Shown here: positions 40,332-59,451 of the stretch, piece by piece
Layout: each line of letters opens with the position of its first letter
Numbering within the stretch: the stretch's first letter is position 1
Assembly: GCA_035280345.1 (NCBI GenBank)
Contig: DATEGA010000227.1
Location: 1-63,804, forward strand
Reading direction: 5' to 3'
Source of the DNA: a bacterium
GTDB lineage: Bacteria > Sysuimicrobiota > Sysuimicrobiia > Sysuimicrobiales > Segetimicrobiaceae
Length of the DNA: 63,804 bases
Program-made: the position numbers and the translations under genes
The notes under the pieces: model-generated
Database searches by the model: none
The model's input: only the letters and a program-made list of their open reading frames with translations
Told to the model about the DNA's origin: nothing

Positions 40332-40374
40332 ACGTTGCGGCCCCGTAAATGCTTGGAAAACTTTCGGGAAAATG
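40332..40374 (-). promoter_or_regulatory. recurrent upstream motif copy (faces the GH15 gene)
   Basis: ACGTTGC-ggcccc-GTAAATGC-ttgga-AAACTTT-cGGGAAAA on the + strand. TAGGCT lies 19 nt beyond the proximal half-site and 6 nt before the ATG. Confidence 0.5.
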
Positions 40375-40394
40375 CCCGGTGGCCGCAATCGCCA

Positions 40395-40437
40395 AAGTTT
40401 TCCATAAATTCTCGCTGCGTTTACTCGCCCGTTACGT
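40395..40437 (+). promoter_or_regulatory. recurrent upstream motif copy (faces the ABC permease gene)
   Basis: GTTTTCC-at-AAATT-ctcgctgc-GTTTAC-tcgccc-GTTACGT. TATGAA lies 20 nt downstream. Confidence 0.5.
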
Positions 40438-40522
40438 CGTCGCCGGTCACTCCTTCTATGAATAAAGAGTACGGGCTGACCGGCCGGTTGAGAATAGGCG
40501 GCATCCCACCCAAGGCGATCTC

Positions 40523-41467
40523 ATGCCGAGTCAGGCCTTACTTGCCGCGGCACACACAACGATCGATCGCCCCTCCCGCCGCCGCCCCTCGGGGCGGCGG
40601 CAGCGGGAGATCCGTGCGGCCTGGCTGCTCCTCGCGCCGGCGGTGCTGCTCGTGCTCGGCGTGCTCGCGTATCCTCTCGGCTGGCTGTTCGGCACCAGCC
40701 TGACCGACTCTTTCGTCCTGAACACAACGACTCGCTTCGTCGGGGTCGCGAACTACGCCGCGCTGCTCGGCGATCCGGGGTTCTGGCGCGCGACCGCCGA
40801 TACGCTCGGCTATCTGGCGGTCAGCTCCGTTCTCAAGATGGCCGTGGGCGTCGGGATCGCGCTGGCTCTTGCCCGGCCGTTTCCGGGCCGGCCGCTCGTG
40901 TTCATCGCCGCGTTCCTGCCGTGGGCGTACCCCGGGGGCCTCGGGGCGGTCGGATGGTACTGGTTCATGCTGCCGCCGCTTCATTCGTCGTACGCCGCGG
41001 CGATGAGTAATCTCCGATTTGCGTTCGACGGCGCGCTCGGCTACGGCGCCTGGGGATTTTTGAGCCTGCTTCTGTTCAACATCTGGCGGGGCGGATCGTT
41101 CGTTGGCATCTTTCTCCTCGCGGCGCTCAACGGCATCCCGCAGGACCTCTTCGACTACGCCGCGTTGGAGGTGCGAAGCCCGTGGCGCACGTTCTGGATG
41201 GTCACCGTACCGCTCCTGCGGCCGTTTCTGGCGCTGGCGACCTTCCTCTCGCTCGTCTCCGCCGTCGTCGACTTGGGGAACGTCTTCGAGCTCTCGGGGT
41301 ATCGCGACGTCTACCCGGTGGTCTGGACGCTGGCGGATCAGTTGGCCATCACGGGAGGCCAGTGGGGCCGGGCGGCGGCGCTCTCGCTTATCCTCCTGCC
41401 GGTATTGATCCTAATCCTCTTCACCTGCTACCGGGTCTTCGACCCCCTGGAGGAGGACCCCGCATGA
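40523..41467 (+). CDS. carbohydrate ABC transporter permease (MalF-like)
   Basis: ORF 40523..41467. 6-TM permease of the binding-protein-dependent family. Confidence 0.8.
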   Translation: MPSQALLAAAHTTIDRPSRRRPSGRRQREIRAAWLLLAPAVLLVLGVLAYPLGWLFGTSLTDSFVLNTTTRFVGVANYAALLGDPGFWRATADTLGYLAVSSVLKMAVGVGIALALARPFPGRPLVFIAAFLPWAYPGGLGAVGWYWFMLPPLHSSYAAAMSNLRFAFDGALGYGAWGFLSLLLFNIWRGGSFVGIFLLAALNGIPQDLFDYAALEVRSPWRTFWMVTVPLLRPFLALATFLSLVSAVVDLGNVFELSGYRDVYPVVWTLADQLAITGGQWGRAAALSLILLPVLILILFTCYRVFDPLEEDPA

Positions 41468-42330
41468 GCGCGCGGCGCGCCTTTGCCCGCCTCCTCCGCG
41501 GCGCCCTGCTTGGGTTGCTCGCGGCGTACAGCATCTTTCCGATCTACATGGTGACGATCGAGTCGCTGAAGACGGTTCGGGAGGACGTCTTCGGGAGCCC
41601 CTTCTACGTCCTCCATCCGAGTCTCGAGTGGTACACCGACCTCTTTACGCGGCAGCAGTGGGTCGCGCACAGTACGCTCACCACTCCCGCCGTTCCCTTC
41701 CTGGTCTGGGCCGGCAACACGGCGATCGTGTTTGGAGGTGCGCTCGCGGTGATTTTGGCCGCCAGCGTCGCGGCCGGGTACGCCATCGGCCGGCTGCGCC
41801 CGCCCGGTTGGCGGTGGTGGCGGCGCGTCCTGCTCGCGACGTTTCTCGTCCCGCAGACGATCCTGTTTCTGCCGCTGTACCACATCGCGTTCCGGCTGCA
41901 CTTGGACGATCACCTGCTGTCGCTCGTGCTGACGTACCCGATGCTGGCCATCCCGTTCTGCGCCTGGCTCTTCTCAACGTACTTTCAGAAACTCAGCCCC
42001 GAAATCGAGGAATCGGCGTACATCGAGGGTGCGGGCCGGGTCGCGGCCTTCTTCAAGATCGTGCTCCCGATGAGCTGGCCCGTCCTGGTCGCCGCCGGCC
42101 TCTTCGCCCTGGGGGTGATCAGCAGCGACTTCATGCTGGCCGGCGTCTTCCTGCCCAACCAGTGGCACCAGACGATTGCGGCCGGGATGTCCACGATGGA
42201 CATCACGCTCGAAGACCTCACCGTGGTTTCGGGGATCAGCATGGGCGGATTGCCGGTGCTGCTCGTCGCGGCGCTGTTCGCGGGCGCGTATGTCCGCGGA
42301 CTCACCGCCGCGATGATCGAAGGGGCATGA
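41464..42330 (+). CDS. carbohydrate ABC transporter permease (MalG-like)
   Basis: Part of ORF 41182..42330. ATG at 41464 overlaps the upstream stop (ATGA). Begins MSARRAFARLLRGALLGLLAAYSIFPIYM. Confidence 0.8.
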   Translation: MSARRAFARLLRGALLGLLAAYSIFPIYMVTIESLKTVREDVFGSPFYVLHPSLEWYTDLFTRQQWVAHSTLTTPAVPFLVWAGNTAIVFGGALAVILAASVAAGYAIGRLRPPGWRWWRRVLLATFLVPQTILFLPLYHIAFRLHLDDHLLSLVLTYPMLAIPFCAWLFSTYFQKLSPEIEESAYIEGAGRVAAFFKIVLPMSWPVLVAAGLFALGVISSDFMLAGVFLPNQWHQTIAAGMSTMDITLEDLTVVSGISMGGLPVLLVAALFAGAYVRGLTAAMIEGA

Positions 42331-42376
42331 GGCCGTCGCGGGCCGCCGGGAGAGCCGGGGTCGGTCCGGCCTGCCG

Positions 42377-43276
42377 CTACTTGACGGCGGCGCTCGTGAG
42401 GCCGCTGATGAACTGATCCAGGAAGAGACTGTAGAGGATCGCGACGGGCACGCCGACCAGCAGCGCCGCCGCCATGAGAGACCCCCAGAAGTACACGTCG
42501 CCCCGGATAAGGTCGGTGGCCACTCCGAGCGGCACCGGCTTCTGGTCGGAGACTGACACGAACACGAGCGCGTAGAGAAAGTCCTGCATCGTAAGGGTAA
42601 ACGTGAAGATCACCGCGGTCAGGATCCCCGCCCAGCTCACCGGAATGACCGTCCGGAGAAAAGCGCCGAACCGCCCGCATCCGTCCACCCGGGCGGCCTC
42701 CTCGATCTCCGGGGGGACCGTCTTGAAGAAACCGCTCATCAGCCATGCACAGAACGGAATCGTGAACGTCGGGTAGACGAGCACGAGCGCCCACTTGGTG
42801 TCGATCAGGTGGAAAAGCGCCACGACCCGGGAGAGGGGGATGAACAGGAGGATCGGCGGGATGAGGTACCCGAGGAAGATCGCGATGCCCAGGTTCTCCG
42901 CGCCCGGCAGGCGGAGCCGCGCCAGCGCGTACCCGGCCGGCACAGCGGCGATCAATGTGATCAGCGAGACGCTCGCGGCGATCACGGCCGTGTTGTACGT
43001 CCAGTCGACGAAGTACGTATGCTGGAAGAGATAGACGAAGTGCCGCACCGTCGGCGCCTGATGGAACCAGAACGGCGAGACGCCGGGGTTGACGAGATCG
43101 TAGTCGGTCTTGAAGGCGGTCACGCCCATCCACACAATCGGGAACAGCGCGACCGCGAGGAACGGCAGCAGTCCGGCGTACACGAGCGCCCACCGGCGAA
43201 TCTCCCGTGCCTGCGCGCGCCGTGCGATGGGCGCGCTCCCCGACCGCCGGCTCGGGAGAGCGTGCACCGCGCTCAC
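42377..43276 (-). CDS. carbohydrate ABC transporter permease (MalG-like)
   Basis: ORF 42377..43276. EAA-loop region IEEAARVDGCGRFGAF. Confidence 0.8.
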   Translation of the reverse strand: MSAVHALPSRRSGSAPIARRAQAREIRRWALVYAGLLPFLAVALFPIVWMGVTAFKTDYDLVNPGVSPFWFHQAPTVRHFVYLFQHTYFVDWTYNTAVIAASVSLITLIAAVPAGYALARLRLPGAENLGIAIFLGYLIPPILLFIPLSRVVALFHLIDTKWALVLVYPTFTIPFCAWLMSGFFKTVPPEIEEAARVDGCGRFGAFLRTVIPVSWAGILTAVIFTFTLTMQDFLYALVFVSVSDQKPVPLGVATDLIRGDVYFWGSLMAAALLVGVPVAILYSLFLDQFISGLTSAAVK

Positions 43277-44217
43277 AGCGCCTCCCTCCTTCGGAGGGTC
43301 CGCAGCAAGAAGTACACGATCGGCAGCAGGAGCGGGAACAGCAGGAGCGAGATCGCGGCGCCACGCCCGAGCGCCCCCGCCTGGATGCCGATCTCAAACG
43401 CCCGCGTGGGGAGGATCTCCGTGGTGTTCATCGGTCCGCCCATCGTCAGCAGGTAGATGATGCTGATGTCCGTCAGCGTGAACACCGTGTCGAAGAGGAG
43501 GCCCACGAACAGGATCGGCGCGGTGATCGGCACGATGACGTAGTGAAACCGGAGGAAGAAGTTGGCGCCGTCGACCTTGGCCGAATCGAGTAGCTCCAGA
43601 GGGACCGCCGAGATGCCGGCCATCAGGACGATCGCCGCGAAGGGGAACCCCCGCCACACGTTCACCGTGATCACCGCCGCCATCGCCAGCGCCGGTTCGC
43701 CGAGCCAGTTGGGCCAGCCGCTCAAGAGGTGGAGGTGCGTGGCCACCCAGTTGACCGAGCTGAACTGGGGGTCGAAGCCCCACTTCCAGGCCAGCGCGGT
43801 GATCACCACAGGGAGGGTCCACGGCAGCACGACGAGGGCCCGGATCAGCCGGCGGCCGGGAACCGCCTGCAGGAGAAGGAACGCAAGCAGCGTCCCCAGG
43901 ACCGCCTTGCAGATGCCGGCGATCACCGTGAACACGATCGTGTTGCGAAGGGCCAGGCGGATGGTGCCGTCCTGGAGGACCGCGACGAAGTTCCGGAAGC
44001 CGACGAACTGGGCGACGGGGTTGCCGACCGTCGCGTTGCTCATACTGAGGTAGAGCGAGAAGAAGAACGGCACACCGACGAGCACCACCATGTACACGAC
44101 GGCCGGCGCGAGCATCGAGTAGCCGAACGTGAAACGGCGGCGGCTGGCCGCGCGGCGCGGGATGCCCGGCGGCCGCTCCGCCGCCGCTTCCGCGCCGAGC
44201 GCGGCTTCCGCTTCCAT
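43273..44217 (-). CDS. carbohydrate ABC transporter permease (MalF-like)
   Basis: ORF 43273..44256. Start at 44217 or 44256. 4-nt overlap with the downstream permease. Confidence 0.8.
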   Translation of the reverse strand: MEAEAALGAEAAAERPPGIPRRAASRRRFTFGYSMLAPAVVYMVVLVGVPFFFSLYLSMSNATVGNPVAQFVGFRNFVAVLQDGTIRLALRNTIVFTVIAGICKAVLGTLLAFLLLQAVPGRRLIRALVVLPWTLPVVITALAWKWGFDPQFSSVNWVATHLHLLSGWPNWLGEPALAMAAVITVNVWRGFPFAAIVLMAGISAVPLELLDSAKVDGANFFLRFHYVIVPITAPILFVGLLFDTVFTLTDISIIYLLTMGGPMNTTEILPTRAFEIGIQAGALGRGAAISLLLFPLLLPIVYFLLRTLRRREAL

Positions 44218-44321
44218 CCCCCGTCCTCGGGTTGTCACATACATGCTCGGTCCCATCGGCCGCCGGCGGACGGTACCGGCGGCGTCGGCGCTTCCCGAAG
44301 TTCACCGCCGGCCGCCGGCTC

Positions 44322-45665
44322 CTACACCTTGTATTTGGCGTAGATGGACTTAATCTGGTCCATCCCCCATGTGATCGAGCTTTCCAGACTGTCGCCGTGG
44401 CAGTACCGCGCCAGCATGTCCGGAACCACGAACGTCGATAGCACCTCGGACGCCGCCGCCGTGGCCGGGCCCGGATAGCCGAACACAAGCGCCACCTTGT
44501 CCCAGTCTTGTAACAGGCTGACTTTGGGGTCGCTCCCGAGTGCCGGCATGGGCTTCTTGTACCAGCCCTTGAGGTACGGCATGTTGTAGCCTTTGCTGGC
44601 GGTGAGCGAGAACTTGACGTCGCCTCCGTAGTGCTCGAGAAACGCCCGCGCCGCGGCCGTGTTCGGCGAGAACTTCCAGATCCCGAGGATCGCCGGATCC
44701 ACCACCGCCGCCCGCCGTGCGGAGCCCATCGGCTCATCGCCGGGGACCGCGACGTTGATCGAATCGTAGAGCTTCGGGTTGCTGTCCTGCACCGAGCGGA
44801 CCGCGGAGATCGCGTCGTGGATATAGAGGGCCACACCCGAGTCGAGATAGCGGTTATCCGACACGTTGTCCCAGGAGAAGACCTCCGACGTCATTCCCTC
44901 CGACCAGAGCGCCTTGCTGAACTTCATGGCTTCGCGAAGCGCCGGAGAGTCCCAGCGCAGGTGCGCGCCGCTTGGGTCGGTCTCTTCGACCCCGAACCCG
45001 TAGAAAACGGCGCGCCAGTTGTGGTTGGAGTCGTTACAGTGCGAAATGGCGAAGCCCGCCGGGTGGCCGTGCTGCTTGCCGATACGGGCGGCCTCCCGCA
45101 GGTTGTCCCACGTGGCCGGAGACTTGAGGCCGTACTCCTTCCAGAGGTCCGCGCGCCACTCGATCGGCTGCGGAATATAGAACTCCGGGATGGCGTACCA
45201 TTGACCGCCGATCGTGGCGACGTTCTTGGCCATCGGGATCCAGCCGCCGGCCGCCATCCCCAGTTTGTCGCAGATGTCCGAGACGTTGACCATGTGCTTG
45301 TAGTAGAGGGTCGTCTGAATCTGCCCGTTCATCTGAAAGATGTCGTGCCCGGCGCCGGCGGCCAGCTCGGATGCGATGCGCGCCGGAAGGTCATCGATGC
45401 TGATGTGATCCACGCGGACGGTTACGCCGTTGGTTTTGCCCCAATCCGCCGCGTAGGTGTCAAACGCCGTATCGTACGCCGGGACGAAGTGGCTCCAGGT
45501 CAGAATGCGCAGCGACGTCCCGCGGATCTGGGCCGGCGCCGCCCCGGCCTCCCAGGGTGTGATCATCCGTGCCGCCGCCGCCCCGGCGACTCCCGCCCCG
45601 GCCGCCGTCAGTAATCGACGCCGGGTCAGGGCCTGACTGGACTTTCGAGCAGGCCGTTCTGCCAT
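44322..45665 (-). CDS. extracellular sugar-binding protein (ABC SBP family 1) with Tat-type signal
   Basis: ATG at 45665 follows GGGAGGTG. TRRRLLTAAGAGVAGAAAA twin-arginine signal. Confidence 0.8.
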   Translation of the reverse strand: MAERPARKSSQALTRRRLLTAAGAGVAGAAAARMITPWEAGAAPAQIRGTSLRILTWSHFVPAYDTAFDTYAADWGKTNGVTVRVDHISIDDLPARIASELAAGAGHDIFQMNGQIQTTLYYKHMVNVSDICDKLGMAAGGWIPMAKNVATIGGQWYAIPEFYIPQPIEWRADLWKEYGLKSPATWDNLREAARIGKQHGHPAGFAISHCNDSNHNWRAVFYGFGVEETDPSGAHLRWDSPALREAMKFSKALWSEGMTSEVFSWDNVSDNRYLDSGVALYIHDAISAVRSVQDSNPKLYDSINVAVPGDEPMGSARRAAVVDPAILGIWKFSPNTAAARAFLEHYGGDVKFSLTASKGYNMPYLKGWYKKPMPALGSDPKVSLLQDWDKVALVFGYPGPATAAASEVLSTFVVPDMLARYCHGDSLESSITWGMDQIKSIYAKYKV

Positions 45666-45804
45666 AAGCCGCACCTCCCGTACGCACGTTGTCCGCGAGG
45701 CTCGAAACATCGGTCGCGTCGGAGTTCCAGGCTCGGGCGCGCTGCCCCGGCTCGCTGCAACAAGCTGCGTGCATGCTCTACTCTAGCCAAATCCGGTCGG
45801 GCTG

Positions 45805-45848
45805 GCGTTACACAGAGGTAAACGCCGCAGAAATTTTGAGGAAACTCG
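45805..45848 (-). promoter_or_regulatory. recurrent upstream motif copy (faces the sugar SBP gene)
   Basis: GCGTTAC-acagag-GTAAACGC-cgcag-AAATTTT-gaGGAAAC. TAGAGT lies 20 nt beyond the proximal half-site. Confidence 0.5.
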
Positions 45849-46106
45849 CGGGGACGGCGGAACCTTGCCGGGCGGGCGCCCTCGGGATGCACGGGCTCCC
45901 GTACGTTCACTCGGCACCGTCCGGGCATCGCCCTCCCCTTGGCGTACCGGCACAGCCTGATGCTCGCCCATTTTCAGCCGGACGCGGCGGACAATCTCCG
46001 CGCCCGCAGCGTGTACACTCAGCTGCGCTTGACCGAACGGGTGTCCTCTGTCTCGTGTTCACGGCCCCGACACCTTCGCGCGTCGCGCGGCGAGCACATC
46101 GCAGAC

Positions 46107-46211
46107 CTACCTGCCGAACAAGTGCCCGGTGAGCTCCAGCGCGAGCACCACGAGCCCCAGCGCGCTTGCGCTCAGCAAGACCAGCATCCACAGATCTCGT
46201 TGGGGCGACAT
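46107..46211 (-). CDS. 34-codon hydrophobic micro-ORF (paralog 1)
   Basis: Not in the ORF track (too short). Translated by hand: MSPQRDLWMLVLLSASALGLVVLALELTGHLFGR. Paralogous to 49054..49158. Confidence 0.35.
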   Translation of the reverse strand: MSPQRDLWMLVLLSASALGLVVLALELTGHLFGR

Positions 46212-46348
46212 CTTCCGAGGCGGCCTCATCCCTGTGGAGTCGGATTATCGTCGTCCAGGCTCGTGCGCACCACCATTGGCCCCCGACGTCACTCGTGTGA
46301 AGGTTTCGCTCCCACGGTAGCAGGCGCGCGGTCGCGTTGACGTTGCGG

Positions 46349-46377
46349 GACCGCCGCCGCGCCGCGCGGCGGCGGTC
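46349..46377 (-). terminator. 13-bp perfect hairpin downstream of the blue-copper gene
   Basis: GACCGCCGCCGCG-ccg-CGCGGCGGCGGTC. No U-tract. Confidence 0.45.
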
Positions 46378-46430
46378 GATGAGGACGGCGGCCGGCACTC
46401 AGCCACCCTCCCGGCACCCTTCCTGGCGCG

Positions 46431-46982
46431 TTACTGAGCGACAAGATGGACGATCTTCGCGGCCGGCGCCGGTGTGATGCTCGGCTTCTTCGCCGTCGCG
46501 GAGACGACAAGTTTGTCCCACATGCCGAGCGTTGCGTGCCCCGGCACACCGCAGACGAACTCGTACGTTCCCGGCCTGCTCGCCACGAACGAGAACGTCG
46601 TCGTCGTCCCCCGCGGCAGGCCCTTCGCGAGGTGCTTCGTGGCAGCGCCTGGAAACGCCGGCGTCTCACTCGCCGGCGCCGCCGGCGGAGTCGACGTGTA
46701 CGGCAGCACGATCAGACTGTGGGCCAAGGCGCCGTCATTCTTGAACGTGACCACGACCTTCCAGCCCACGGGAACCGTAACCGTCATCCCGCCCCGCGCA
46801 TAACCGTCGAGGTTATAACCGTTGTCCGCCGGCGTCTGGTCCGCAACGATCGTGACGTGAACGGTATGTGCCGCCGCGAGCGCGGGAGCTCCCGCGAGCA
46901 GCGCCATGGCCGCGACGACAAGTCCAATAGCTACTCCTGTGCGGGCCCCTCCGAACAAATCGGTCGCTGCCTTCCTGCGCAT
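46431..46982 (-). CDS. type-1 blue-copper protein, rusticyanin/sulfocyanin-like
   Basis: ATG at 46982 follows GGAGGTG. TM/signal anchor. Ligand pattern ALAHS ... FVCGVPGHATLGMW (Cys, His+5, Met+10). Confidence 0.75.
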   Translation of the reverse strand: MRRKAATDLFGGARTGVAIGLVVAAMALLAGAPALAAAHTVHVTIVADQTPADNGYNLDGYARGGMTVTVPVGWKVVVTFKNDGALAHSLIVLPYTSTPPAAPASETPAFPGAATKHLAKGLPRGTTTTFSFVASRPGTYEFVCGVPGHATLGMWDKLVVSATAKKPSITPAPAAKIVHLVAQ

Positions 46983-47033
46983 CTCAACTGCACCTCCACG
47001 CTCATTTTTTGGACTCACACGGAGTGGCGGCCG

Positions 47034-48641: not shown

Positions 48642-48907
48642 CTCAGAGCCTCCATCAGAAAGAATGCGCCCGAAAGACTGATCTCCCGCACAAAACGCTC
48701 GGGGAGCCCGGGGCCAGGGCAACGCTCAAACCCAAAGCCGTTGGCGGCGAGCAGCGCCGGCGTCGACCCATCGTTACCTCGCCCGACAACGGATTCTGGC
48801 TCAAGCGTGCAGCGCGAGTCGTCCGGCGACTTCCGGGGCGCCAACTCGCTGCACCGAGACACGGTACGGTCCTCCAAGATTCACCTTAGCAACGCCGGGC
48901 CTTTCTA

Positions 48908-48950
48908 GCGTTGCAGATGCGTAAACGCTGGAACAACTTCGGGTAAATTT
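48908..48950 (-). promoter_or_regulatory. recurrent upstream motif copy (faces the Rieske operon)
   Basis: GCGTTGC-agatgc-GTAAACGC-tggaa-CAACTT-cGGGTAAAT. TAAGGT lies 20 nt beyond the proximal half-site. Confidence 0.5.
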
Positions 48951-49053: not shown

Positions 49054-49158
49054 TTACAATCGCCCCAGCAGGTGTCCGCTGAGGGTCGGCGCCAGGATCA
49101 CAAGGGCCAGTACGCTGGCGCCGAGCAGGACGATCCCACAGATCGCTTCGTGGCGCAT
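49054..49158 (-). CDS. 34-codon hydrophobic micro-ORF (paralog 2)
   Basis: Translated by hand: MRHEAICGIVLLGASVLALVILAPTLSGHLLGRL. Same length as paralog 1 and shares the C-terminal GHL(F/L)GR. Confidence 0.35.
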   Translation of the reverse strand: MRHEAICGIVLLGASVLALVILAPTLSGHLLGRL

Positions 49159-49198: not shown

Positions 49199-49498
49199 TC
49201 AGGGCCTCTGATCACAGTCGTAGATGCGCAGGCGATCACTGTTGTTGAGCGGGTCGCTCGCCTGGAGGCAGGCCTCGGCCGACGAAAAGACCTGTTTCGT
49301 CCGAGACCACCGGCCGGACGTCGACGACCGGACGTAGAGCACCCAGGGACTTGCAGAGGGCGCCGCCGTTGGTCTCACCGCGGAAGACGCCGGGGAGCGA
49401 GCCGGGCGATGAGCGGTCATCACAGTCGTTCGTACGGTGAGAATCAGCGCGACGACGCAGACAAGCGCAGCCGCGGCCGTCAATACTGCCCGCAACAT
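49199..49498 (-). CDS. hypothetical small membrane-anchored protein (99 aa)
   Basis: ATG at 49498 follows GGAG, within ORF 49199..49606. N-terminal TM segment MLRAVLTAAAALVCVVALILTV. Confidence 0.4.
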   Translation of the reverse strand: MLRAVLTAAAALVCVVALILTVRTTVMTAHRPARSPASSAVRPTAAPSASPWVLYVRSSTSGRWSRTKQVFSSAEACLQASDPLNNSDRLRIYDCDQRP

Positions 49499-49719
49499 AC
49501 ATCTCCATTTCGCCCGATGTTCACATGGGCACAGACGCCAAGGTACGGCCGACCGATCACGCCGCCGGCCGAGACCGCGCCGGTCGTGATCTCGAGGGCC
49601 ACACATCGCGCCTCACGCCGCGCGGCGAACGTCAGGTCGAGCGGATATACACTGTCTCTCTTTCACGTCCGCTGATCGGGTGAAGTCGGTCCGAGGATAC
49701 TCTGCCGGGAAGCATGCCG

Positions 49720-49751
49720 GCGTTACCGGAGGGTAAACATTGGCACAATTT
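49720..49751 (-). promoter_or_regulatory. recurrent upstream motif copy (faces the 49498 gene)
   Basis: GCGTTAC-cggagg-GTAAAC-attggca-CAATTT. TATCCT lies 21 nt beyond the proximal half-site. Confidence 0.5.
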
Positions 49752-49791
49752 GCCGCACGGTCGAGGTTGCGGCAACACCGAGTGGCGGCCC

Positions 49792-49968: not shown

Positions 49969-49978
49969 CGGCCGCGCG

Positions 49979-50743
49979 TCAGATGTCGTCGCGGAGGCGG
50001 TAGCCTACGCCGCGGACCGTCTGGATGAGGTGCGCCGATTCGGGATTCCCCTCGAGCCGCTGCCGCACCCGCGAGACGTGAACGTCGAGCGTCTTTTCTT
50101 CTCCAAAGAAGTCCTCACCCCAGACCACGGTGAGGAGCTCTTGCCGCGGAACCACCTCCCCGGCACGCTGGGCGAGGAGCCGCAGGAGGTCGAACTCCTT
50201 ACGCGGCAGCGCGACGGGACGCCCGCGCAGGGTGACCGTGTGCCGGGCCGGGTCGATCGTAAGGGGCCCAACCTCCAGCCGGCCGGCGATTTCGGTGCCA
50301 CGACTGCGCCGGATGGCCGCGCGCACCCGCGCGATGAACTCGCGGGGTCCAAACGGTTTCGCGAGGTAGTCGTCCGCGCCCACCTCGAGGCCGACGACTT
50401 TATCAACCTCGTCGCCGCGGGCGCTGACCATGAGGATGGGGACGCCGGCCACACGCCGGAGCCGGCGGGTCACTTCGAGGCCGTCGACATCGGGCAGCAT
50501 GATGTCGAGGACAATCAGCGCGGGCCGCTCGGCGGCTGCGGCCTCCAGCGCGGCTGTGCCGGTTTCCGCCGCTACTACCCGGTACCCCTCGCGCTCAAGA
50601 AAGAACCGCATCGAGGTCAGCATCGGAACCTCGTCGTCCACGACCAGAACCGTCGGCCGACACCCTGCCCCTTCGTGGCCGGCCGTGGCGGACGCCGGCG
50701 TCGCTTCGGTTGAGTCCGGGTGATCGCGGAAGCTGCGGGCCAT
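49979..50743 (-). CDS. OmpR/PhoB-family response regulator
   Basis: ATG at 50743 follows GAGGAA. Receiver VLVVDDE...DIMLPDVDG. Winged helix LPRKEFDLLRLL...DVHVSRVRQRLE. Confidence 0.9.
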   Translation of the reverse strand: MARSFRDHPDSTEATPASATAGHEGAGCRPTVLVVDDEVPMLTSMRFFLEREGYRVVAAETGTAALEAAAAERPALIVLDIMLPDVDGLEVTRRLRRVAGVPILMVSARGDEVDKVVGLEVGADDYLAKPFGPREFIARVRAAIRRSRGTEIAGRLEVGPLTIDPARHTVTLRGRPVALPRKEFDLLRLLAQRAGEVVPRQELLTVVWGEDFFGEEKTLDVHVSRVRQRLEGNPESAHLIQTVRGVGYRLRDDI

Positions 50744-50986
50744 TTGAGAGTTCCTCACCCACGACTACGAAACATTCGTGCTAAAAGTTTTTCCCTGAGT
50801 GCGCCGGGGCAGTTGCGGTCCGCCAGCGCGGGCCGTTCGCTCGCTTCCGGTGCAGACCAACGACCTCGGAGTGCCGAGAAAGATCCCGCTCCTCGACGGC
50901 GCGGCGACGCCCCGGCCCCTCGCTTGACTGAGGTCCCCGCGGGCCATGCGCGCGTCCCACGTTACTCTGAAGGCGGTTCGCTTCAG

Positions 50987-51017
50987 TTGGGCGGCCGGCC
51001 GACAGCCGGCCGCCCAA
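50987..51017 (-). terminator. 13-bp perfect hairpin after the wall-protein gene
   Basis: TTGGGCGGCCGGC-cgaca-GCCGGCCGCCCAA, 18 nt after the stop at 51035. Confidence 0.55.
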
Positions 51018-51034
51018 CGAGAGATGTCTTCGCC

Positions 51035-52618: not shown

Positions 52619-52714
52619 TGCCGACACCTGCTGCCCTCCTCTCGGATGTGTACTCAGCTGTGCGGTCCACGCGAGTCTAGCTCCCCGCCACCGTACCACC
52701 GCGATCCTGCGCGG

Positions 52715-52755
52715 GCTTTGCGGAACGGTAAACGCGGCCAAAATTTACGGTAAAC
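52715..52755 (-). promoter_or_regulatory. recurrent upstream motif copy (faces the 52618 gene)
   Basis: GCTTTGC-ggaacg-GTAAACGC-ggcca-AAATTT-acGGTAAAC. TACGGT lies 20 nt beyond the proximal half-site. Confidence 0.5.
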
Positions 52756-52899
52756 TCGGCCCCGCATTCTGTGGACGAGGCGGTTCGGATGCGGTGTTCT
52801 GGGTAAACTGAGGGCGGTATTTGAATCGAGGACATTGGCAGAGGGGCTGACCGCCGTGTCGCCCCTCTGCTGTCTTGACGTCGGAATCAGAGGTGCGGG

Positions 52900-53085
52900 A
52901 TGGATCCGAAGTTTTGGGAAATGTTGGTTGTGCTCGCGATCGTCATCCTGTTGTTTGGTCCAAACCGGCTTGCGGGCCTCGGTGCCGCCGTCGGCAAGGC
53001 GATGCGCGAATTTCGCGAAACGACAAGGCCCGACAGACCGGAACCCGGCGCGTCACCAGAGAACGAAACCGCCAAGCATCGCTGA
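52900..53085 (+). CDS. tatA: twin-arginine translocase subunit TatA/E
   Basis: ORF 52900..53085. MDPKFWEMLVVLAIVILLFGPNRLAGLGAAVGKAMREFR is a canonical TatA N-terminus. Confidence 0.9.
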   Translation: MDPKFWEMLVVLAIVILLFGPNRLAGLGAAVGKAMREFRETTRPDRPEPGASPENETAKHR

Positions 53086-53096
53086 GTCACGCGTGC

Positions 53097-53573
53097 CTAC
53101 GCGACTCGAGACCGCGACTCCCCCGCCACCGGCGGGTGGATCAGCAACACCGGCACAGACGTAGCGTGCATCACGGCGTCGGCCACGCTTCCGAACAGCA
53201 GGCGACCGACCCCGCGGCGCGCGTGTGTGCCCATGACGATCAAGTCCGCGGACCAGTGCTCGGCCTCCGCGGCGATAAGGTCGGGGATTCGCCGCCCGTT
53301 CGACTCGATCACCGCGGTTTCGACATGTTCGATTCCGGCCTGCCCCGCGGCGTCCGTGGCTCGGTTCATGATTTCGTCTGAGCGCCGACGCGCCTCTTGG
53401 GTCGCTTCGAGGTAGATTTCGTAGACGCCCTCGACTGCGTAGACCGACTGTTCGTCGATCACGTGGATGATCCTCACGCCCGCCTTCTCCTCGCGGGCCA
53501 GGCAAATGCCGTGGCGGAGGGCCGCGTAGCTGCATGTGCTGCCGTCGATCGAAATGAGAATCCGTTCGTACAT
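53097..53573 (-). CDS. universal stress protein (UspA family)
   Basis: ORF 53097..53573. ILISIDGS...DLIVMGTHARRGVGRLLFGSVADAVMHATSVPVLLI. Confidence 0.85.
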   Translation of the reverse strand: MYERILISIDGSTCSYAALRHGICLAREEKAGVRIIHVIDEQSVYAVEGVYEIYLEATQEARRRSDEIMNRATDAAGQAGIEHVETAVIESNGRRIPDLIAAEAEHWSADLIVMGTHARRGVGRLLFGSVADAVMHATSVPVLLIHPPVAGESRSRVA

Positions 53574-53627
53574 TCTGCGGCCTCCCGTCCATCTTTTGTT
53601 CGACCATAGTACGCTCAGCCGGCACTT

Positions 53628-53658
53628 GCGTTACGGAGGGGTAAACGCTTGACAAATT
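53628..53658 (-). promoter_or_regulatory. recurrent upstream motif copy (faces the USP gene)
   Basis: GCGTTAC-ggaggg-GTAAACGC-ttgac-AAATT. TACTAT lies 17 nt and TATGGT 20 nt beyond the proximal half-site. Confidence 0.5.
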
Positions 53659-53888
53659 CTCGGCGAGTCTCCAGCGGTTGCCGGGAGGGTTTACTGCGAT
53701 CGTGGTACCCGTGGAACACCCCACTATACGCGGGTCCGAGAAGCATGTCTGACTCGGCGCGCACAATCGATAGCGGTCAAGAAGGCGCGAATTGTTTCCG
53801 AGAGTTTCCACAGTGTTTACCTCATCGTAACGGCAGGAGGACCCGCGATTGGTACGCTCACGACGGGCTGTTGCGAGGAGGCGTGTAT

Positions 53889-55682
53889 ATGGCAAGTGAG
53901 CGGAGCGAGGAGATAATCGCGGCATTGGCATCGGGACGGATCAGCCGCAGGGAGGCACTCAAGCGTCTCGCGCTATTGGGCATTTCGGCGGGCGGGATCA
54001 CGTCGCTACTCTCGACGGCGGCGCCGCGGACCGCGCGGGCCGCGGGCCGCGGCGGCAGCGGTACGGTAAAGATCCTCTACTGGGAGGCGCCCACGATCGT
54101 TAACCCGCATCTGGCGCAGGGCACGAAGGACTTCGACGCATCGCGAGTCTGCCTCGAGCCGCTCTTGACGGTGGACGCCGCCGGCCGCTTTTCCCCGGTC
54201 CTGGCGGCGAACGTGCCGTCCCGCGCCAACGGGCAGGTCGCCGCGGACGGCAGATCCGTGGTCTACAAGCTGAAGAGAGGCGTGCGCTGGGGCGACGGGC
54301 GTCCGTTCACCGCGGACGACGTGGCATTCACCTACCAATTCATCGCGAACAAGGAGACCGGTGCAACGACCTACGCCACGTACGACAACGTCGCCACGGT
54401 CGAGGCCCTCGATCCGCTCGCGGTGAAGATCACGTTCAAGAAGCCGACCCCGGCGTGGTACCTGCCGTTTGTCGGCGGCAACGGGATGATCCTGCCGCGC
54501 CACGCGCTCGACGCGTACGTCGGCAGCGGCGCGCGCAACGCACCGTTCAACCTGAAGGCGTTCGGCACGGGGCCCTACAAGGTCGACACCTTCCGCCCGG
54601 GCGACCTCGTCGTCTACTCGATCAACCCGTACTATCGCGAGCCGGGCAAGCCCGCCTTCGACCAGGTGCAGTTGAAGGGCGGCGGCGACGCGACCTCGGC
54701 GGCGCGCGCGGTGTTGGAAACGGCAGAGTACGACTACGCCTGGAACCTCCAGGTGGAGTGGCCGGTGCTGCAGCATCTCGCGGAGGGCGGGAAGGGCAAG
54801 GTCATCACCGGACACGGCGGCGGCGTGGAGCAGATTTACTGCAACATGTCCGACCCGAACAGGACCCTGGACGGCCAGCGCTCGTCGGTCCGGGCGCCGC
54901 ACCCCTTCCTCGCAGACGCCCGGGTCCGCCAGGCCATGGGCCTCGCGATCGACCGGATGACGATCGCGAGAGAATTGTACGGCGAAGAGGGCGATGCGAC
55001 GGTCGACGTGCTGACGACGCCGACCACGTATCTGTCACCGAACGAAAAGATCGAGTACGACATCGACAAGGCCAACCGGCTGCTCGACGAGGCGGGATAC
55101 CGGCGCGGGCCGGACGGCATTCGCCGCAAGGGTGCGGTCGCGTTCAACGTCACCTATCAGACCAGCGTGAACCCGCTCCGGCAGAAGGAGCAAGAGATCG
55201 TCAAGGCCGGGTGGGCCAAGATCGGGGTCGGGGCGCTGCTCAAGTCCGTCGACGCGGGCGTGTTCTTCAGCAGCTCGCCGGGCAACAACGACACCTACGC
55301 CCACTTCTATACCGACGTGGAGATGTTCACGTCGACCTTCGGCTCGCCGTTCCCCGGCACCTACATGGGGCGCTTCTACAGCGGCGATCTGGCAAAGGAC
55401 GTCCCCCAGCGCGAGAACAACTGGTCGGGCCTTGACATCACGCGGTGGGTCGACAAGGAATACAACGCCCTGTACGAGCAGGCCCTGGTGGAGCTCGATC
55501 CCGCGAAGAACCGCGAACTCTGGATTAGGATGAACGACCGGGTCGTCAGCCAGGGCGTCTCGCTGCCGATTATCGATCGAAAGCAGGTCTCGGCCCACGT
55601 CACCACGTTGGACGTGGCAGAGAACTTGAGCCCGTTCGATGCGGAGACGCGGAACATCGCGGACTGGCGGCGGACCGGCTAG
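53889..55682 (+). CDS. ABC transporter substrate-binding protein, family 5 (peptide/nickel type), Tat signal
   Basis: ATG at 53889 follows GAGGAGG, within ORF 53649..55682. SRREALKRLALLGISAGG signal. Confidence 0.85.
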   Translation: MASERSEEIIAALASGRISRREALKRLALLGISAGGITSLLSTAAPRTARAAGRGGSGTVKILYWEAPTIVNPHLAQGTKDFDASRVCLEPLLTVDAAGRFSPVLAANVPSRANGQVAADGRSVVYKLKRGVRWGDGRPFTADDVAFTYQFIANKETGATTYATYDNVATVEALDPLAVKITFKKPTPAWYLPFVGGNGMILPRHALDAYVGSGARNAPFNLKAFGTGPYKVDTFRPGDLVVYSINPYYREPGKPAFDQVQLKGGGDATSAARAVLETAEYDYAWNLQVEWPVLQHLAEGGKGKVITGHGGGVEQIYCNMSDPNRTLDGQRSSVRAPHPFLADARVRQAMGLAIDRMTIARELYGEEGDATVDVLTTPTTYLSPNEKIEYDIDKANRLLDEAGYRRGPDGIRRKGAVAFNVTYQTSVNPLRQKEQEIVKAGWAKIGVGALLKSVDAGVFFSSSPGNNDTYAHFYTDVEMFTSTFGSPFPGTYMGRFYSGDLAKDVPQRENNWSGLDITRWVDKEYNALYEQALVELDPAKNRELWIRMNDRVVSQGVSLPIIDRKQVSAHVTTLDVAENLSPFDAETRNIADWRRTG

Positions 55683-55711
55683 CCGCCGGTCCGGTTCGCG
55701 GGGGACGTCCG

Positions 55712-56656
55712 GTGACGGCGTATATCGTCCGGCGCTCCGTCCAGTCGCTGCCCACCTTGATCCTGATCAGCATGGTGGTGTTCGGCATCCTGGCGCTGGC
55801 ACCGGGCGATCCGCTTGGCCAACTCGCGGCCAACCCGGACGTCCCTCCTCAAGTCCGGCAGCTGATCCTTCACCAAATGGGCCTCGACCAGCCGATCCCG
55901 ATCCGATACGTGAAGTGGGCCGTGGCGTTCCTGCACGGCAACTGGGGCTACTCGTTCGCAAGCCACGTCCAGGTGAACCGCCTGATCCTCCAACGGCTGC
56001 CGACCGACCTGTGGGTGATCGGGTCCGCGTACCTGTTCGCCGTGCTCCTCGCCATCCCGATCGGCGTCCTCTCGGCCGTCAAGCAGTACTCCCTGCTCGA
56101 TCAGATCGCGACGACGCTTGCCTTCATCGGGTTCTCGCTCCCGACGTTCTTCACGGGGATCGTGTTCATCATCATTTTCAGCATCCGCCTGCACTGGTTC
56201 CCGTTCATCTACAGCGTGGAGGTGCACGGCCCCGTCGCGTGGGCGAAGCAGGCGGTCATGCCCGTGGCCGTGCTCGCGTTGTTCCAGGGCGCGGCGCTGA
56301 TGCGTTTCGTGCGCTCGTCCATGCTCGACAATATCACCATGGACTACGTGCGCACCGCACGGGCGAAGGGCCTCACGACCTGGAAAGTCATCGTTCGGCA
56401 CGTACTGCGGAACGGCCTGATCCCGGTGATCACCCTGCTGGCGCTGGGGGTCCCGGCGATCTTCACCGGCGCGGTGGTCACGGAACAGATCTTCAGGGTC
56501 CCGGGCATCGGGTCACTGCTCATCGCGTCCATCGAGAACAGCGACACGCCGGTGGTGATGGCGATCACGTTCGTCTACGCGATCCTCGTGGTGATCTTCA
56601 ATCTCATCGCGGACATCTTCTACGGGAACCTGGACCCGCGGATCACCTACGGTTGA
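55712..56656 (+). CDS. ABC transporter permease (DppB/OppB-like)
   Basis: ORF 55712..56656. Begins MTAYIVRRSVQSLPTLILISMVVFGIL, typical of the family. Confidence 0.85.
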   Translation: MTAYIVRRSVQSLPTLILISMVVFGILALAPGDPLGQLAANPDVPPQVRQLILHQMGLDQPIPIRYVKWAVAFLHGNWGYSFASHVQVNRLILQRLPTDLWVIGSAYLFAVLLAIPIGVLSAVKQYSLLDQIATTLAFIGFSLPTFFTGIVFIIIFSIRLHWFPFIYSVEVHGPVAWAKQAVMPVAVLALFQGAALMRFVRSSMLDNITMDYVRTARAKGLTTWKVIVRHVLRNGLIPVITLLALGVPAIFTGAVVTEQIFRVPGIGSLLIASIENSDTPVVMAITFVYAILVVIFNLIADIFYGNLDPRITYG

Positions 56657-56668
56657 TCGCGGCGCCCT

Positions 56669-57622
56669 GTGGCGAGCATCCATTCGAGCCATCTCGGCCG
56701 GGCCGGAGCCGTTCCCGCGGGCGCCGACGTTCGCTCCCGACACGCACGTTCGCTTTGGGGCGACACCTGGAGGCGCTTCCGCCGCCACCGCCTCGCGGTG
56801 GCGGGCGCGTGCACGTTCCTCGTCATATCCGCAGCCACGATCGTCGGCCCGGCCGTCTACCCCGTCGGGATCAACACCATTGATTTCCAGGCGTCGATGG
56901 CGCCGCCGTCGTGGGCCCATCCGCTCGGGACCAACGACCTCGGCCAGGACATGCTCGCCCGCATCCTGTACGGCGGTCGAATCTCCATCGCCGTGGGCAT
57001 CACCGCGATGCTCGTATCAGCCACGTTCGGCACGCTCGTGGGCGCGGCGGCCGGATACTTCGGCGGCCTCCTCGATACGGTGCTGATGCGGATCACCGAT
57101 GTGTTCATCTCGCTGCCGTCGCTGCCGCTGCTGCTGCTGATCATTTACCTCTTCCGGGCGAGCCTGACCAAGGCGCTTGGGCCTCAGCTGGGCATTTTCT
57201 GGCTGATCGTGCTCGTGATCGGCGGGCTGCGGTGGATGCCGACCGCGCGCCTGGTGCGGGCCGGGTTTCTCTCGGTGCGGGAGAAAGAATACATCGAAGC
57301 GGCCCGCGCCCTGGGAGTGGGGACACGCTCGCAAATCTTCCGGCACATCCTGCCGAACACCCTGAGCCCGGTGATCGTCTCCGCCACGCTCTCAGTCGGC
57401 GCCGCGATTATCTCGGAGTCCACGCTGTCGTTCCTCGGCCTCGGCTTTCCGCCCGACATCCCCACGTGGGGGCGGCTCCTGTACGACGCCCAGAACTACC
57501 TCGATCTCGCGCCGCACATGGCGATCTTTCCGGGGTTGATGATCTGTCTGACCGTGCTGGCGGTCAACTACGTGGGGGATGGCCTGCGGGACGCACTCGA
57601 CCCCACCCGGGTGCTCTCATGA
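56669..57622 (+). CDS. ABC transporter permease (DppC/OppC-like)
   Basis: ORF 56669..57622 (GTG start). HPLGTNDLGQDMLARILYGGRISI motif. Confidence 0.85.
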   Translation: MASIHSSHLGRAGAVPAGADVRSRHARSLWGDTWRRFRRHRLAVAGACTFLVISAATIVGPAVYPVGINTIDFQASMAPPSWAHPLGTNDLGQDMLARILYGGRISIAVGITAMLVSATFGTLVGAAAGYFGGLLDTVLMRITDVFISLPSLPLLLLIIYLFRASLTKALGPQLGIFWLIVLVIGGLRWMPTARLVRAGFLSVREKEYIEAARALGVGTRSQIFRHILPNTLSPVIVSATLSVGAAIISESTLSFLGLGFPPDIPTWGRLLYDAQNYLDLAPHMAIFPGLMICLTVLAVNYVGDGLRDALDPTRVLS

Positions 57623-57742
57623 GCCTGCGCACTCGCCATGTGCAGTTCCGCGTGCCGTTCCGCGCGTATTTGGGCGGCCGGTTCGTCGAACGCGGAGACG
57701 AACCGTAGACTCATTCGCCGTCTTCCGCCACGCGCGGTCGCC

Positions 57743-57779
57743 GTGCCGGCGGCAGCGACGCGAAAGGGGCCGCCGGCAC
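57743..57779 (-). terminator. 11-bp stem hairpin just after the histidine kinase stop
   Basis: GTGCCGGCGGC-15 nt-GCCGCCGGCAC. Confidence 0.4.
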
Positions 57780-57783
57780 CAAG

Positions 57784-59217
57784 CTAGCTCGACAGCGCCC
57801 TCCGCATCCCGGACGAGACCGGCCGAGAAGCAGCGGCCGGCAACCGGATCACAAAGGTGGTTCCGCGGCCCGCCCGGCTGCTGACAGAGATCAGCCCTCC
57901 GTGCGCGTCGACGATGGCTTTGACGATCGCGAGTCCTAGGCCGCTTCCCCCGGAGGCCCGATCGCGTGCCGGACCTCCCCGATAGAATTTTTCGAACACG
58001 AACGGGAGATCGTGCTCCGCGATCCCGCGGCCAGTGTCGGCCACCGTCAGAATGACAGAGGCATCCGCGGCGCCTGCCGCCAACTGAATGGCCCCTCCGC
58101 TCGGCGTGCTACGCAGCGCGTTGTCCACAAGATTGTCCAGGACTTCCGCCAGGCGATCCGGGTCGCCGTCGATAGGCGGAAGCCCGGCCCGGGGCGACGC
58201 CTCCAGACGAACTCCCTGCGCTTCGGCGCGCACGGCGAACCGCGCCGCCAAATTCATGAGGAGATCGGGCGCGTCGACGGGCGAGCGCGTGAGCACGAAC
58301 CGGCCCGACTGGAAACGCAGCAGATCGAGCAACTGGCGCAAGAGCCGCGCCAGACGCTCCGTCTCACGGCCGATCGTATCGAGCATTTGCCGGTGCCGCT
58401 CCGGGTCCGCGTCGGCGCCGGCGAGGAGTGCCTGGGCCGTGAACTGCATATTCGCGACAGGTGTGCGCAGCTCATGAGAGACGTTGGCGAGAAAATCACG
58501 CCGGAGATTTTCCCGCTCGTTCAGGTCGCGCGCCATCGTATTGAGGACGCGCGCGAGATCTCCAAGTTCATCGGCGCGCTCGGGGATCTGTTCTCGAAGA
58601 TTGCCGCGCCCGATCCGCTCCGCCTCGGCTTTCATCGACGCGATCGGCCCGAAGAGCGCCTGCGTCAGGTAGAGAACCAGCCCCCCGGCGAGCACCGCGG
58701 CCAGCGCGTACCCGATGGCCAGCGCCAATCGGACGCGCGCGAACACGCCCTCCACGCTCCGGAGCGGCACGAGCAGGTCGACCACCTCGCCGGCCGCCGC
58801 CCCCTCCTCGACCGGCGCGGCAGCGTACAGCCAGCGCACGCCGGCCCCGTCAGAGATCTGGCCCTGGACCACCTTGCCGCTCAACGCGGGGTCGACACCG
58901 GGCTCCGCCAAAAGGCCTCGAGGGAGGGGACCCGACGCCGCGACATCTTTTCCTTCGTAGTTGATGAGGGCAATCCTGATGCCCAGAACGCGCGCCCATC
59001 GAACCATGCGCTGCCGGCGCGCCGGCCCCCGAGGTTCCGCGGCCGCCTCCGCGGCCGCCAACCGCGCGGTCGCCGTAAGGTTGGCAAGAAGGTGAGCGAG
59101 AGTCGCGCTCTCGAGCGCCGGCACCGCGTAGAGTCCCAAAACCGCCAGCGGGAGCGCGGTCGCGATCAGAAAGGACCCCAAGAGACGGGCACGGAGGCTC
59201 CGGTGCAGGTTCAGCAT
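57784..59217 (-). CDS. sensor histidine kinase (2 TM, HAMP, HisKA, HATPase_c)
   Basis: ORF 57784..59217. H-box SHELRTPVANM. N, G1 and G2 boxes (DNALRST, DTGRGI, GGSGLGLAI). Confidence 0.9.
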   Translation of the reverse strand: MLNLHRSLRARLLGSFLIATALPLAVLGLYAVPALESATLAHLLANLTATARLAAAEAAAEPRGPARRQRMVRWARVLGIRIALINYEGKDVAASGPLPRGLLAEPGVDPALSGKVVQGQISDGAGVRWLYAAAPVEEGAAAGEVVDLLVPLRSVEGVFARVRLALAIGYALAAVLAGGLVLYLTQALFGPIASMKAEAERIGRGNLREQIPERADELGDLARVLNTMARDLNERENLRRDFLANVSHELRTPVANMQFTAQALLAGADADPERHRQMLDTIGRETERLARLLRQLLDLLRFQSGRFVLTRSPVDAPDLLMNLAARFAVRAEAQGVRLEASPRAGLPPIDGDPDRLAEVLDNLVDNALRSTPSGGAIQLAAGAADASVILTVADTGRGIAEHDLPFVFEKFYRGGPARDRASGGSGLGLAIVKAIVDAHGGLISVSSRAGRGTTFVIRLPAAASRPVSSGMRRALSS

Positions 59218-59401
59218 TCGAGGCGAGATACCGCCCGACGCCGCAGCTCTTTCGGATCAGACGGAGTGCATCGGGATCGTCTTCCCGGCGGTCTCGGTCG
59301 GACGATGCGCGCGTCGAGCATTGTTGCCTGATCGAAGAAACCTGCAACAAGAACCCTGGCCATGCTTGGTTGGCGCCTCACGAGGACAAGATTCTTCTCT
59401 T

Positions 59402-59451
59402 ATTACCCGAATTAGCAATAAGTTGTTCCGTTGTTTACTAATCGGTAACGT
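59402..59451 (+). promoter_or_regulatory. recurrent upstream motif copy (faces the second USP gene)
   Basis: AAGTT-gttccgtt-GTTTAC-taatcg-GTAACGT on the + strand. No clear -10 hexamer found downstream. Confidence 0.4.

Follow-up and report, generated by a model that had tools for sequence, protein, structure and literature searches.

What reads the repeated promoter element that occupies one end of a 63,804-nucleotide bacterial contig (DATEGA010000227.1, assembly GCA_035280345.1; the metagenome contig k141_2518128 of ENA ERZ27257086)? We refer to this whole stretch of DNA as the window. A preliminary description had listed eight copies of an oriented motif, RCGTTRC-N6-GTAAAC-N7-AAATT, upstream of genes in the window, and had proposed that they belong to the regulon of a global activator, probably a Crp/Fnr-type dimer that is encoded elsewhere. 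Our analysis points to a protein encoded among the copies themselves. Each copy is probably a composite operator, built like a PHO box, for the OmpR/PhoB-family response regulator at 49979–50742, with the sensor histidine kinase at 57784–59217 as partner of that regulator. We infer binding of the regulator to the motif, activation as the outcome and the sensed signal, each of them from the DNA sequence.

Pattern and weight-matrix scans of the 63.8-kb window recovered all eight copies where they had been placed, and added a ninth at 53791–53835 on the plus strand (core match 53815–53833, minus strand), upstream of an SBP_5 gene. With up to two mismatches allowed, RCGTTRC-N6-GTAAAC matches the window nine times, compared with 2.1 matches expected from dinucleotide shuffles, and 0 of 100 shuffles reached nine. 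The shorter GTTRC-N6-GTAAC is also enriched in the window. When a weight-matrix check was run on the window, a 34-column matrix scored the nine sites at 38–44 bits (23–37 bits when each site was left out in turn); the rest of the window reached at most 12 bits, and the best of 50 shuffled windows reached 17.6 bits. A 45-column matrix, made from 30 sites in about nine related genomes, found only the same nine sites in the window. These are confined to about 19 kb (40.3–59.5 kb), and scans with either matrix found zero sites at positions 1–40 kb. The nine sites thus crowd around two-component genes, and the remaining 40 kb is free of them. This distribution does not support the earlier idea of a global regulon; what we see looks like a local two-component regulon.

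Viral contigs scanned with GCGTTTAC-N6-GTAACG served only as a control and gave 89 single matches, at chance level. In a collection of metagenome contigs, in which few relatives are present, a 38-bit pattern gave six matches, one of which was genuine and was a duplicate of the site at a related locus, L176. No motif was found at homologues of the universal stress proteins of the window (47–52% identity) on usable contigs, a result that is uninformative for sites far from two-component genes.

Read toward the gene, the 30 sites give a consensus of about 45 bp, A.TTT.Cc..aAgTTt.c.c..cGTTTACcc..c.GyAACGyC. It divides into four units, phased at 11 bp: A.TTT.Cc, aAgTTt.c, cGTTTACc and GyAACGyC. When a matrix of the strongest unit (GCGTTTACCC) was run over the aligned sites, the direct-orientation maxima fell at offsets 30, 41, 52 and 63, each exactly 11 bp from the next. 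Neither the N6 nor the N7 spacer varies, as had been reported from a hand alignment, and the third word seen further upstream is real; it precedes the GTTTAC unit by 22 nt, or twice the 11-nt step. GTwAC reads the same on both strands, so the palindrome recognized earlier doubles as the last of four units in a phased tandem array. Its halves are unequal (GTTTAC compared with GTAAC), and conservation runs on asymmetrically through two further upstream units at 11-bp steps. A GTTTAC/GTwAC half-site is typical of OmpR/PhoB-family boxes.

A short inverted repeat in many copies might also be a dispersed repeat, of the repetitive extragenic palindrome (REP) or miniature inverted-repeat transposable element (MITE) kind, or an RNA hairpin, and take no part in the start of transcription. 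Outside the 45-bp array the information content is nil, which excludes a REP/MITE-type repeat: conservation is limited to the 45-bp pattern and extends neither to spacers nor to flanks. All nine window sites are intergenic and face a gene start, as had been stated for the first eight; they keep a fixed distance to a −10 hexamer, and sites are kept upstream of orthologous genes in relatives (below). About ten sites have co-directional genes on both flanks, and all of these point the same way as the genes. Orientation was judged by the gene calls of the collection; a test based on open reading frames (ORFs) was confounded by antisense ORFs with high GC content at third codon positions. With regard to a hairpin, the half-sites are invariant, not covarying, and an Rfam scan of the window gave no matches. 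We consider the repeat or hairpin reading effectively refuted.

The array stands at a fixed position relative to a promoter. In 25 of the 30 sites a TAnnnT hexamer begins 19–21 nt after GyAACG, compared with four such hexamers at the other 42 offsets combined, and T at −3 and G at −2 before the hexamer are enriched, which corresponds to an extended −10 of the TGn type. The −10-like hexamers proposed earlier largely hold at this spacing: TAnnnT is present in seven of the nine window sites and an eighth site (40395–40439) has TATGAA at 20 nt, but 59409–59453 offers only GAGTGT. The −35 interval reads AACGYC, with no position in common with TTGACA, and no canonical −35 was found at the sites. Transcription starts were inferred from the −10 hexamers; with the start placed 7 nt after the hexamer, the proximal pair of units is centred at about −42. 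The starts predicted in this way for the nine arrays, in order along the window, are 40301, 40469, 45773, 48876, 49687, 52683, 53596, 53865 and 59483. This centre and the lack of a usable −35 agree with the class II-like activator geometry that had been suggested. What stands of the earlier view of an oriented, promoter-associated activator site is its architecture as a protein-binding site, the fixed −10 distance and the centre near −42; its attributions to Crp/Fnr and to a global regulon are not supported.

One gene offers an internal check on the −10 assignment. The −10 TAGGCT lies 6 nt ahead of the ATG of the gene for a GH15 protein (40301–40313) and leaves no space for a ribosome-binding site. 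The predicted transcription start is base 40301, the A of that ATG, and the Pfam match of the protein runs from residue 4. The GH15 mRNA is therefore probably leaderless, and it is this leaderless start that provides the check. At another site ATG 45774 lies 5 nt after the −10 TAGAGT (45780–45785) and opens a 104-aa ORF that overlaps the SBP gene in another frame; this is probably a coincidence, and could be a second leaderless start.

Promoters of other classes and operators of other regulators were compared with the aligned sites and rejected. Promoters for an extracytoplasmic function (ECF) sigma factor (−35 GnAAC, N16–17, −10 CGTn) or of the sigma-B type would place CGT or GGGTAT as the −10 at a consistent distance; neither was found there, and TAnnnT at 19–21 nt takes their place. 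The consensuses for cre, CodY, NtcA and Rex misfit in half-site order or sequence.

Class II sites of Crp/Fnr proteins (TGTGA-N6-TCACA and TTGAT-N4-ATCAA) lie near −41.5, where the activator replaces the −35. The geometry found here could belong to a global activator of the Crp/Fnr type, or to another symmetric dimeric helix-turn-helix (HTH) protein, that is encoded elsewhere and binds GTTAC-N6-GTAAAC at about −41.5, with the upstream A/T-rich words acting like UP elements. The centre of the proximal pair, about −42 from the inferred start, is what such a protein would require, and the functions of the target genes are mixed. The proximal unit scores slightly better inverted than direct (−1.8 versus −4.2), and GC(G) is present on both flanks of the proximal pair (GCG/CGC). 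The half-site, however, is unlike TGTGA, TTGAT or GTA-N8-TAC, the halves are unequal and the repeats upstream are phased; the element is a four-unit 11-bp array and not a symmetric 5-N6-5 palindrome. The sites cluster beside two-component genes and there are none in 40 kb of the same contig. The observation that the window encodes no Crp/Fnr regulator was confirmed, and there is none in nine related loci (about 150 kb) either. We consider an activator of this kind quite unlikely.

The preliminary description implied that no regulator for the motif is encoded in the window, and overlooked an OmpR-family regulator and a kinase inside the site cluster. The regulator gene (49979–50742, minus strand) lies in the middle of the cluster. 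Its product, the proposed binder of the arrays, is a response regulator of the OmpR/PhoB family (Pfam Response_reg, 7e-30; Trans_reg_C, 5e-28), with RegX3 as the best PDB match (1.6e-58), followed by MtrA, PrrA and PhoP. The sensor histidine kinase (57784–59217, minus strand) has two transmembrane (TM) helices around an extracytoplasmic loop of about 125 aa and the domains HAMP, HisKA and HATPase_c; a Pfam domain search found no PAS domain. In NCBIfam, both proteins fall below every equivalog cut-off. The best matches are YycF, MtrA and PhoB for the regulator and WalK, PnpS and PhoR for the kinase (bits against cut-off: YycF 228/340, WalK 239/725, PhoB 220/296 and PhoR 195/334).

In a protein search the clade of regulator orthologues was sharply bounded, with identities of 66–100% followed by a drop to ≤57%. 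The helix EKTLDVHxSRLRQRL is conserved across 26 clade members (P0001–P0026) with conservative L/V and S/A changes only, and the next homologues (≤57% identity) have recognition helices of the RTVDVHxRWLREK type. Genomic contexts were taken for seven clade members. The closest genomes are two Centralia metagenome-assembled genomes labelled Bacillota, whose regulators are 77–78% identical to the window regulator. A kinase orthologue adjoins the regulator orthologue or lies near it in related loci L096, L097, L176, L179, L181, L183, L184, L185 and L188, and this synteny indicates that the window kinase is the cognate partner of the window regulator.

The motif follows these genes. Despite rearrangements, nine of ten related loci have it no more than about 260 bp from a two-component gene. 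It typically precedes the two-component operon itself, or else a neighbouring gene for an HtrA-like protease, an SBP_5 transporter gene or a cupredoxin operon. The HtrA-like gene stands beside the two-component genes in six relatives, with a gene order that varies by locus; a site lies upstream of this adjacent gene in L176, L179, L181, L183 and L184, and in L185 upstream of an operon that runs Cu_amine_oxidN1, HtrA, histidine kinase, response regulator. Further sites precede SBP_5 genes (L184 and L185), the cupredoxin operon (L184) and small conserved proteins. Comparison with related genomes showed that sites are kept upstream of orthologous genes where the regulators are 72–86% identical. 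No other DNA-binding protein is common to the related loci. Around distant homologues of the regulator (78 loci, L098–L175, ≤57% identity, about 1.2 Mb) no site of at least 18 bits was found. The window itself has a rearranged two-component locus: the kinase and regulator genes, adjacent in relatives, are 7 kb apart, the HtrA-like gene of the six relatives was not found anywhere in the window by tblastn, and the TetR–CLC pair that flanks the system in L185 is at 30.7–33.7 kb.

The same comparison bears on whether the array could be an OmpR/PhoB-family operator of a different paralogue, such as a true PhoP or a WalR-like protein, for which the neighbouring two-component system would be only one target. 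TTTAC(C/A) is near to Firmicute PHO boxes and, on the other strand, to WalR TGTWAH (PMC11870197). The best NCBIfam matches of the two proteins (above), although all below cut-off, speak for such a paralogue, as does L097, which has two-component genes without sites. Yet none of the 30 sites is followed by a pst or pho gene or by a gene for a cell-wall hydrolase, the motif tracks this particular regulator and kinase through several rearrangements, and the clade has its own invariant recognition helix. We think that a different paralogue is unlikely to be the binder. Two known regulons were also rejected as such: the Pho regulon, for lack of phosphate genes behind the 30 sites and because the PhoB/PhoR scores are below cut-off, and WalRK, for which scores are below cut-off, the PAS domain is missing, the box match is partial and cell-wall hydrolase targets are absent.

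Among intergenic gaps, 12 of the 23 that touch two-component genes bear a site, compared with 13 of the 89 others (Fisher p = 3.7e-4, an optimistic value because the related loci are phylogenetically non-independent), and this linkage favours assigning the arrays to the window regulator and its kinase. Other observations weigh against that assignment. Locus L097 has the orthologous kinase and regulator, yet no site in 13 kb. The region upstream of the regulator gene itself (50743–51033) is without a scoring site and has only weak TTTTAG and GTTTCG words, and a GC-rich hairpin separates this gene from the operon upstream of it. The proximal unit, which scores as well or slightly better when inverted, and the GCG/CGC flanks make a symmetric dimer on the proximal pair possible. 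It is also possible that the regulon is much larger, with a regulator encoded elsewhere. With these points counted, we still hold the regulator at 49979–50742 to be the probable binder.

If it is, the array suggests a mechanism. The four 11-bp units, at about −74, −63, −52 and −41, would all share the same face of the helix, and the proximal unit GyAACGyC would take the place of the missing −35, 19–21 nt upstream of a TAnnnT −10 that is often of the extended TGn form. The phosphorylated regulator would bind as tandem dimers, as PhoB/PhoP does on PHO boxes, and would stand in for the contact between sigma region 4 and the −35. In this manner it would recruit the housekeeping sigma-A holoenzyme to the −10 or extended −10 promoter, and thus activate transcription. 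The exported and membrane targets, the external loop of the kinase and the linkage to HtrA suggest that extracytoplasmic stress or starvation may be the signal; this is conjecture.

The regulator could bind the same array and act in the opposite direction, as a repressor that blocks RNA polymerase at the −35. The proximal unit does overlap the −35 position, from which some OmpR-family regulators repress, and CutR acts on htr genes as activator and as repressor (PMC12802291). Against this, no promoter in the set has a recognizable −35 that would serve an unaided polymerase, AACGYC sharing no position with TTGACA, and rigid −10 spacing combined with four-unit arrays that end at the −35 is the pattern of activated PHO-box promoters (PMC11825685, PMC2275107). 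Repression is, to our minds, very unlikely.

The closest likeness in known systems is to the PHO boxes of Gram-positive PhoP proteins. The PHO box of Bacillus subtilis is given as four TT(A/T/C)ACA-like repeats with 11-bp periodicity (PMC11870197), and Streptomyces PhoP binds direct repeat units of 11 nt (PMC2275107). In activation complexes of Mycobacterium tuberculosis PhoP solved by cryogenic electron microscopy, tandem dimers overlap the −35 and displace sigma region 4 (PMC11825685). Shared with the window are a regulator of the OmpR/PhoB family, tandem 11-bp units (two to six), a TTTAC core close to TTHACA, and proximal units that overlap or replace the −35. PhoP on PHO boxes forms cooperative tandem dimers that contact RNA polymerase (PMC11870197, PMC2275107, PMC11825685), as the window regulator would. 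Unlike PHO-box systems, the window system has no phosphate genes after its sites and its kinase has no PAS domain, and the proximal GyAACGyC differs from the distal units and also fits an inverted copy.

CssRS of Bacillus, CutRS/CssRS of Streptomyces, MprAB–PepD in mycobacteria and CpxAR–DegP in Escherichia coli are two-component systems that control neighbouring proteases of the HtrA family. They resemble ours in pairing a kinase that has an extracytoplasmic loop with an OmpR-family regulator, beside an HtrA-like gene that bears the operator (in the relatives), and in having mostly exported targets. They differ in that the window regulator is no NCBIfam orthologue of theirs, the window lacks the protease gene, and the window regulon extends to cupredoxins, universal stress proteins and the uptake of sugars and peptides. 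CutR binds TAWATAAA in the secretion stress response of Streptomyces (PMC12802291), and the window operator is unlike this sequence.

WalRK (YycFG), with the box TGTWAH-N5-TGTWAH, shares the 11-bp period and an opposite-strand core, (C)GTTAC-N5-(n)GTAAA, and YycF and WalK are the best NCBIfam matches; the first T of TGT, by contrast, is not conserved in the window motif. The last gene of the B. subtilis wal operon, htrC/yycK, is HtrA-like. The actinobacterial GlnR and AfsQ1 boxes read GTnAC-n6-GTnAC or GaAAC, and here too the GTnAC half-site is self-complementary, so that direct repeats can look palindromic. SaeR, another OmpR-family regulator with a 5-N6-5 site, binds the direct repeat GTTAA-N6-GTTAA (PMC5083920). 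Both SaeR and GlnR/AfsQ1 belong to other organisms and regulons, and the window operator differs from their sites in having four units and a fixed place relative to the −10.

Taken further, the kinase, the regulator and the four-unit operator could represent an undescribed regulon of the envelope- or secretion-stress type, in a high-GC lineage from thermal soils that is uncultured and labelled Bacillota. Such a regulon would bring together an HtrA-like protease, redox proteins outside the cytoplasm, transporters that bind nutrients, a trehalase-like enzyme and universal stress proteins; micropeptides (below) might be accessory or feedback partners of the kinase, and the proximal pair might be bound head-to-head, which is unusual for the family. 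We offer this wider picture tentatively, as one possibility. Two-component regulons with a tandem operator over the −35 are well known; this one, from an uncultured lineage, reveals no new regulatory principle and is a fairly ordinary, well-defined local regulon. What the analysis provides is a precise cis-regulatory code (the 45-bp operator, the −10 and predicted starts) and a candidate kinase–regulator pair for a lineage known only from metagenomes. It also illustrates that one contig, taken together with related contigs, can be enough to reconstruct a regulon. Extracytoplasmic functions that appear to be co-regulated (protease, cupredoxins, uptake systems and stress proteins) are suggested, and gene calls are corrected at a probably leaderless gene, at a start codon that was probably mis-set and for some small genes that had not been called.

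The genes served by the nine arrays encode largely exported or membrane proteins, in addition to the trehalase-like GH15 enzyme and two universal stress proteins. Array 1 (40330–40374, minus strand; ATTTAC-N6-GCAACG) has the −10 TAGGCT at 40308–40313 and serves the GH15/trehalase-like gene, and array 2 (40395–40439, plus strand; GTTTAC-N6-GTTACG) has the −10-like TATGAA at 40457–40462 and serves a pair of ABC permeases at 40523–42330. Array 3 (45803–45847, minus strand; −10 TAGAGT, 45780–45785) serves an operon of SBP_bac_1 and two permeases (45664 to 42377). Array 4 (48906–48950, minus strand; −10 TAAGGT, 48883–48888) serves the operon from 48640 to 46430, which encodes a 139-aa protein, a Rieske-like protein of 235 aa, a cupredoxin and a SoxE/sulfocyanin-like protein; orthologous sites are at 2509 in L184 and 10809 in L185.

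Array 5 (49718–49762, minus strand; −10 TATCCT, 49694–49699) serves a small conserved protein (49199–49498/49606) and a 34-aa micropeptide (49054–49158). The small protein (49199–49606, minus strand; about 99–135 aa) has an N-terminal hydrophobic segment and was not called by the source pipeline. It is conserved in L176, in L183 (1781–2110, also behind a site) and in L185. The micropeptide, of about 34 aa and with a single TM segment (..VLLGASxLALVxLAxxLSGHLLGRL), occurs twice in the window, at 49054–49158 and 46107–46211, both on the minus strand. In relatives it is found at 10955–11062 in L185, 6014–6118 in L188 and 9705–9875 in L176, directly downstream of a motif site and often shortly before the HtrA-like gene. 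The peptide may assist the two-component system as an accessory factor.

Array 6 (52713–52757, minus strand; GTTTAC-N6-GCAAAG; −10 TACGGT, 52690–52695) serves a gene for a Cu_amine_oxidN1-domain protein (52617 to 51035); the next gene downstream is that of the regulator. The orthologous site, at 5567 in L185, heads the Cu_amine_oxidN1–HtrA–kinase–regulator operon of that locus. Between the stop codon of the Cu_amine_oxidN1 gene and the regulator gene, at about 50985–51015 on the minus strand, is the perfect GC-rich hairpin, TTGGGCGGCCGGC-tgtc-GCCGGCCGCCCAA; it has no T tract and may be a terminator that lacks a T tail.

Array 7 (53626–53670, minus strand; −10 TATGGT, 53603–53608) serves the gene of a universal stress protein, 53573 to 53097. 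Array 8, the copy absent from the preliminary description (53791–53835, plus strand; −10 TACGCT, 53853–53858), serves an SBP_bac_5/OppB/OppC operon at 53888–57621, and its orthologous sites are at 6426 in L184 and 5480 in L185. Array 9 (59409–59453, plus strand; weak −10 GAGTGT, 59471–59476) is divergent from the kinase gene and serves a second universal stress protein. For this 247-aa protein the called start is 59464, 10–12 nt past the operator, and the GTG at 59572, behind GGAAGG, gives the canonical N terminus MYQHILVAIDG; this GTG is probably the true start, and 59464 a mis-annotation.

Elsewhere in the window, an ORF at 21515–22129 (204 aa) with a cyclic nucleotide monophosphate (cNMP)-binding domain was considered as a Crp protein and rejected; it has no HTH, and its C terminus runs into fragments of a DASS transporter. 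Over 20327–22129 (minus strand) this ORF overlaps Na_sulph_symp/DASS fragments, and the whole resembles a cyclic-nucleotide-gated transporter that has been frameshifted or fused, rather than a transcription factor. The surrounding region, 16000–24000, has a GC content of 0.61–0.62, compared with 0.65–0.70, and few confident coding frames; encoded there are a NarL/LuxR-type response regulator (17624–18361, minus strand) and a SpoIIAA-like STAS gene (about 22209–22394). At the other end, directly downstream of the motif-controlled universal stress protein gene, a DUF4118-PAS-GAF-SpoIIE (PP2C) phosphatase is encoded at 60417–62372 on the plus strand, and the presence of both a SpoIIE phosphatase and a STAS protein suggests partner-switching signalling.

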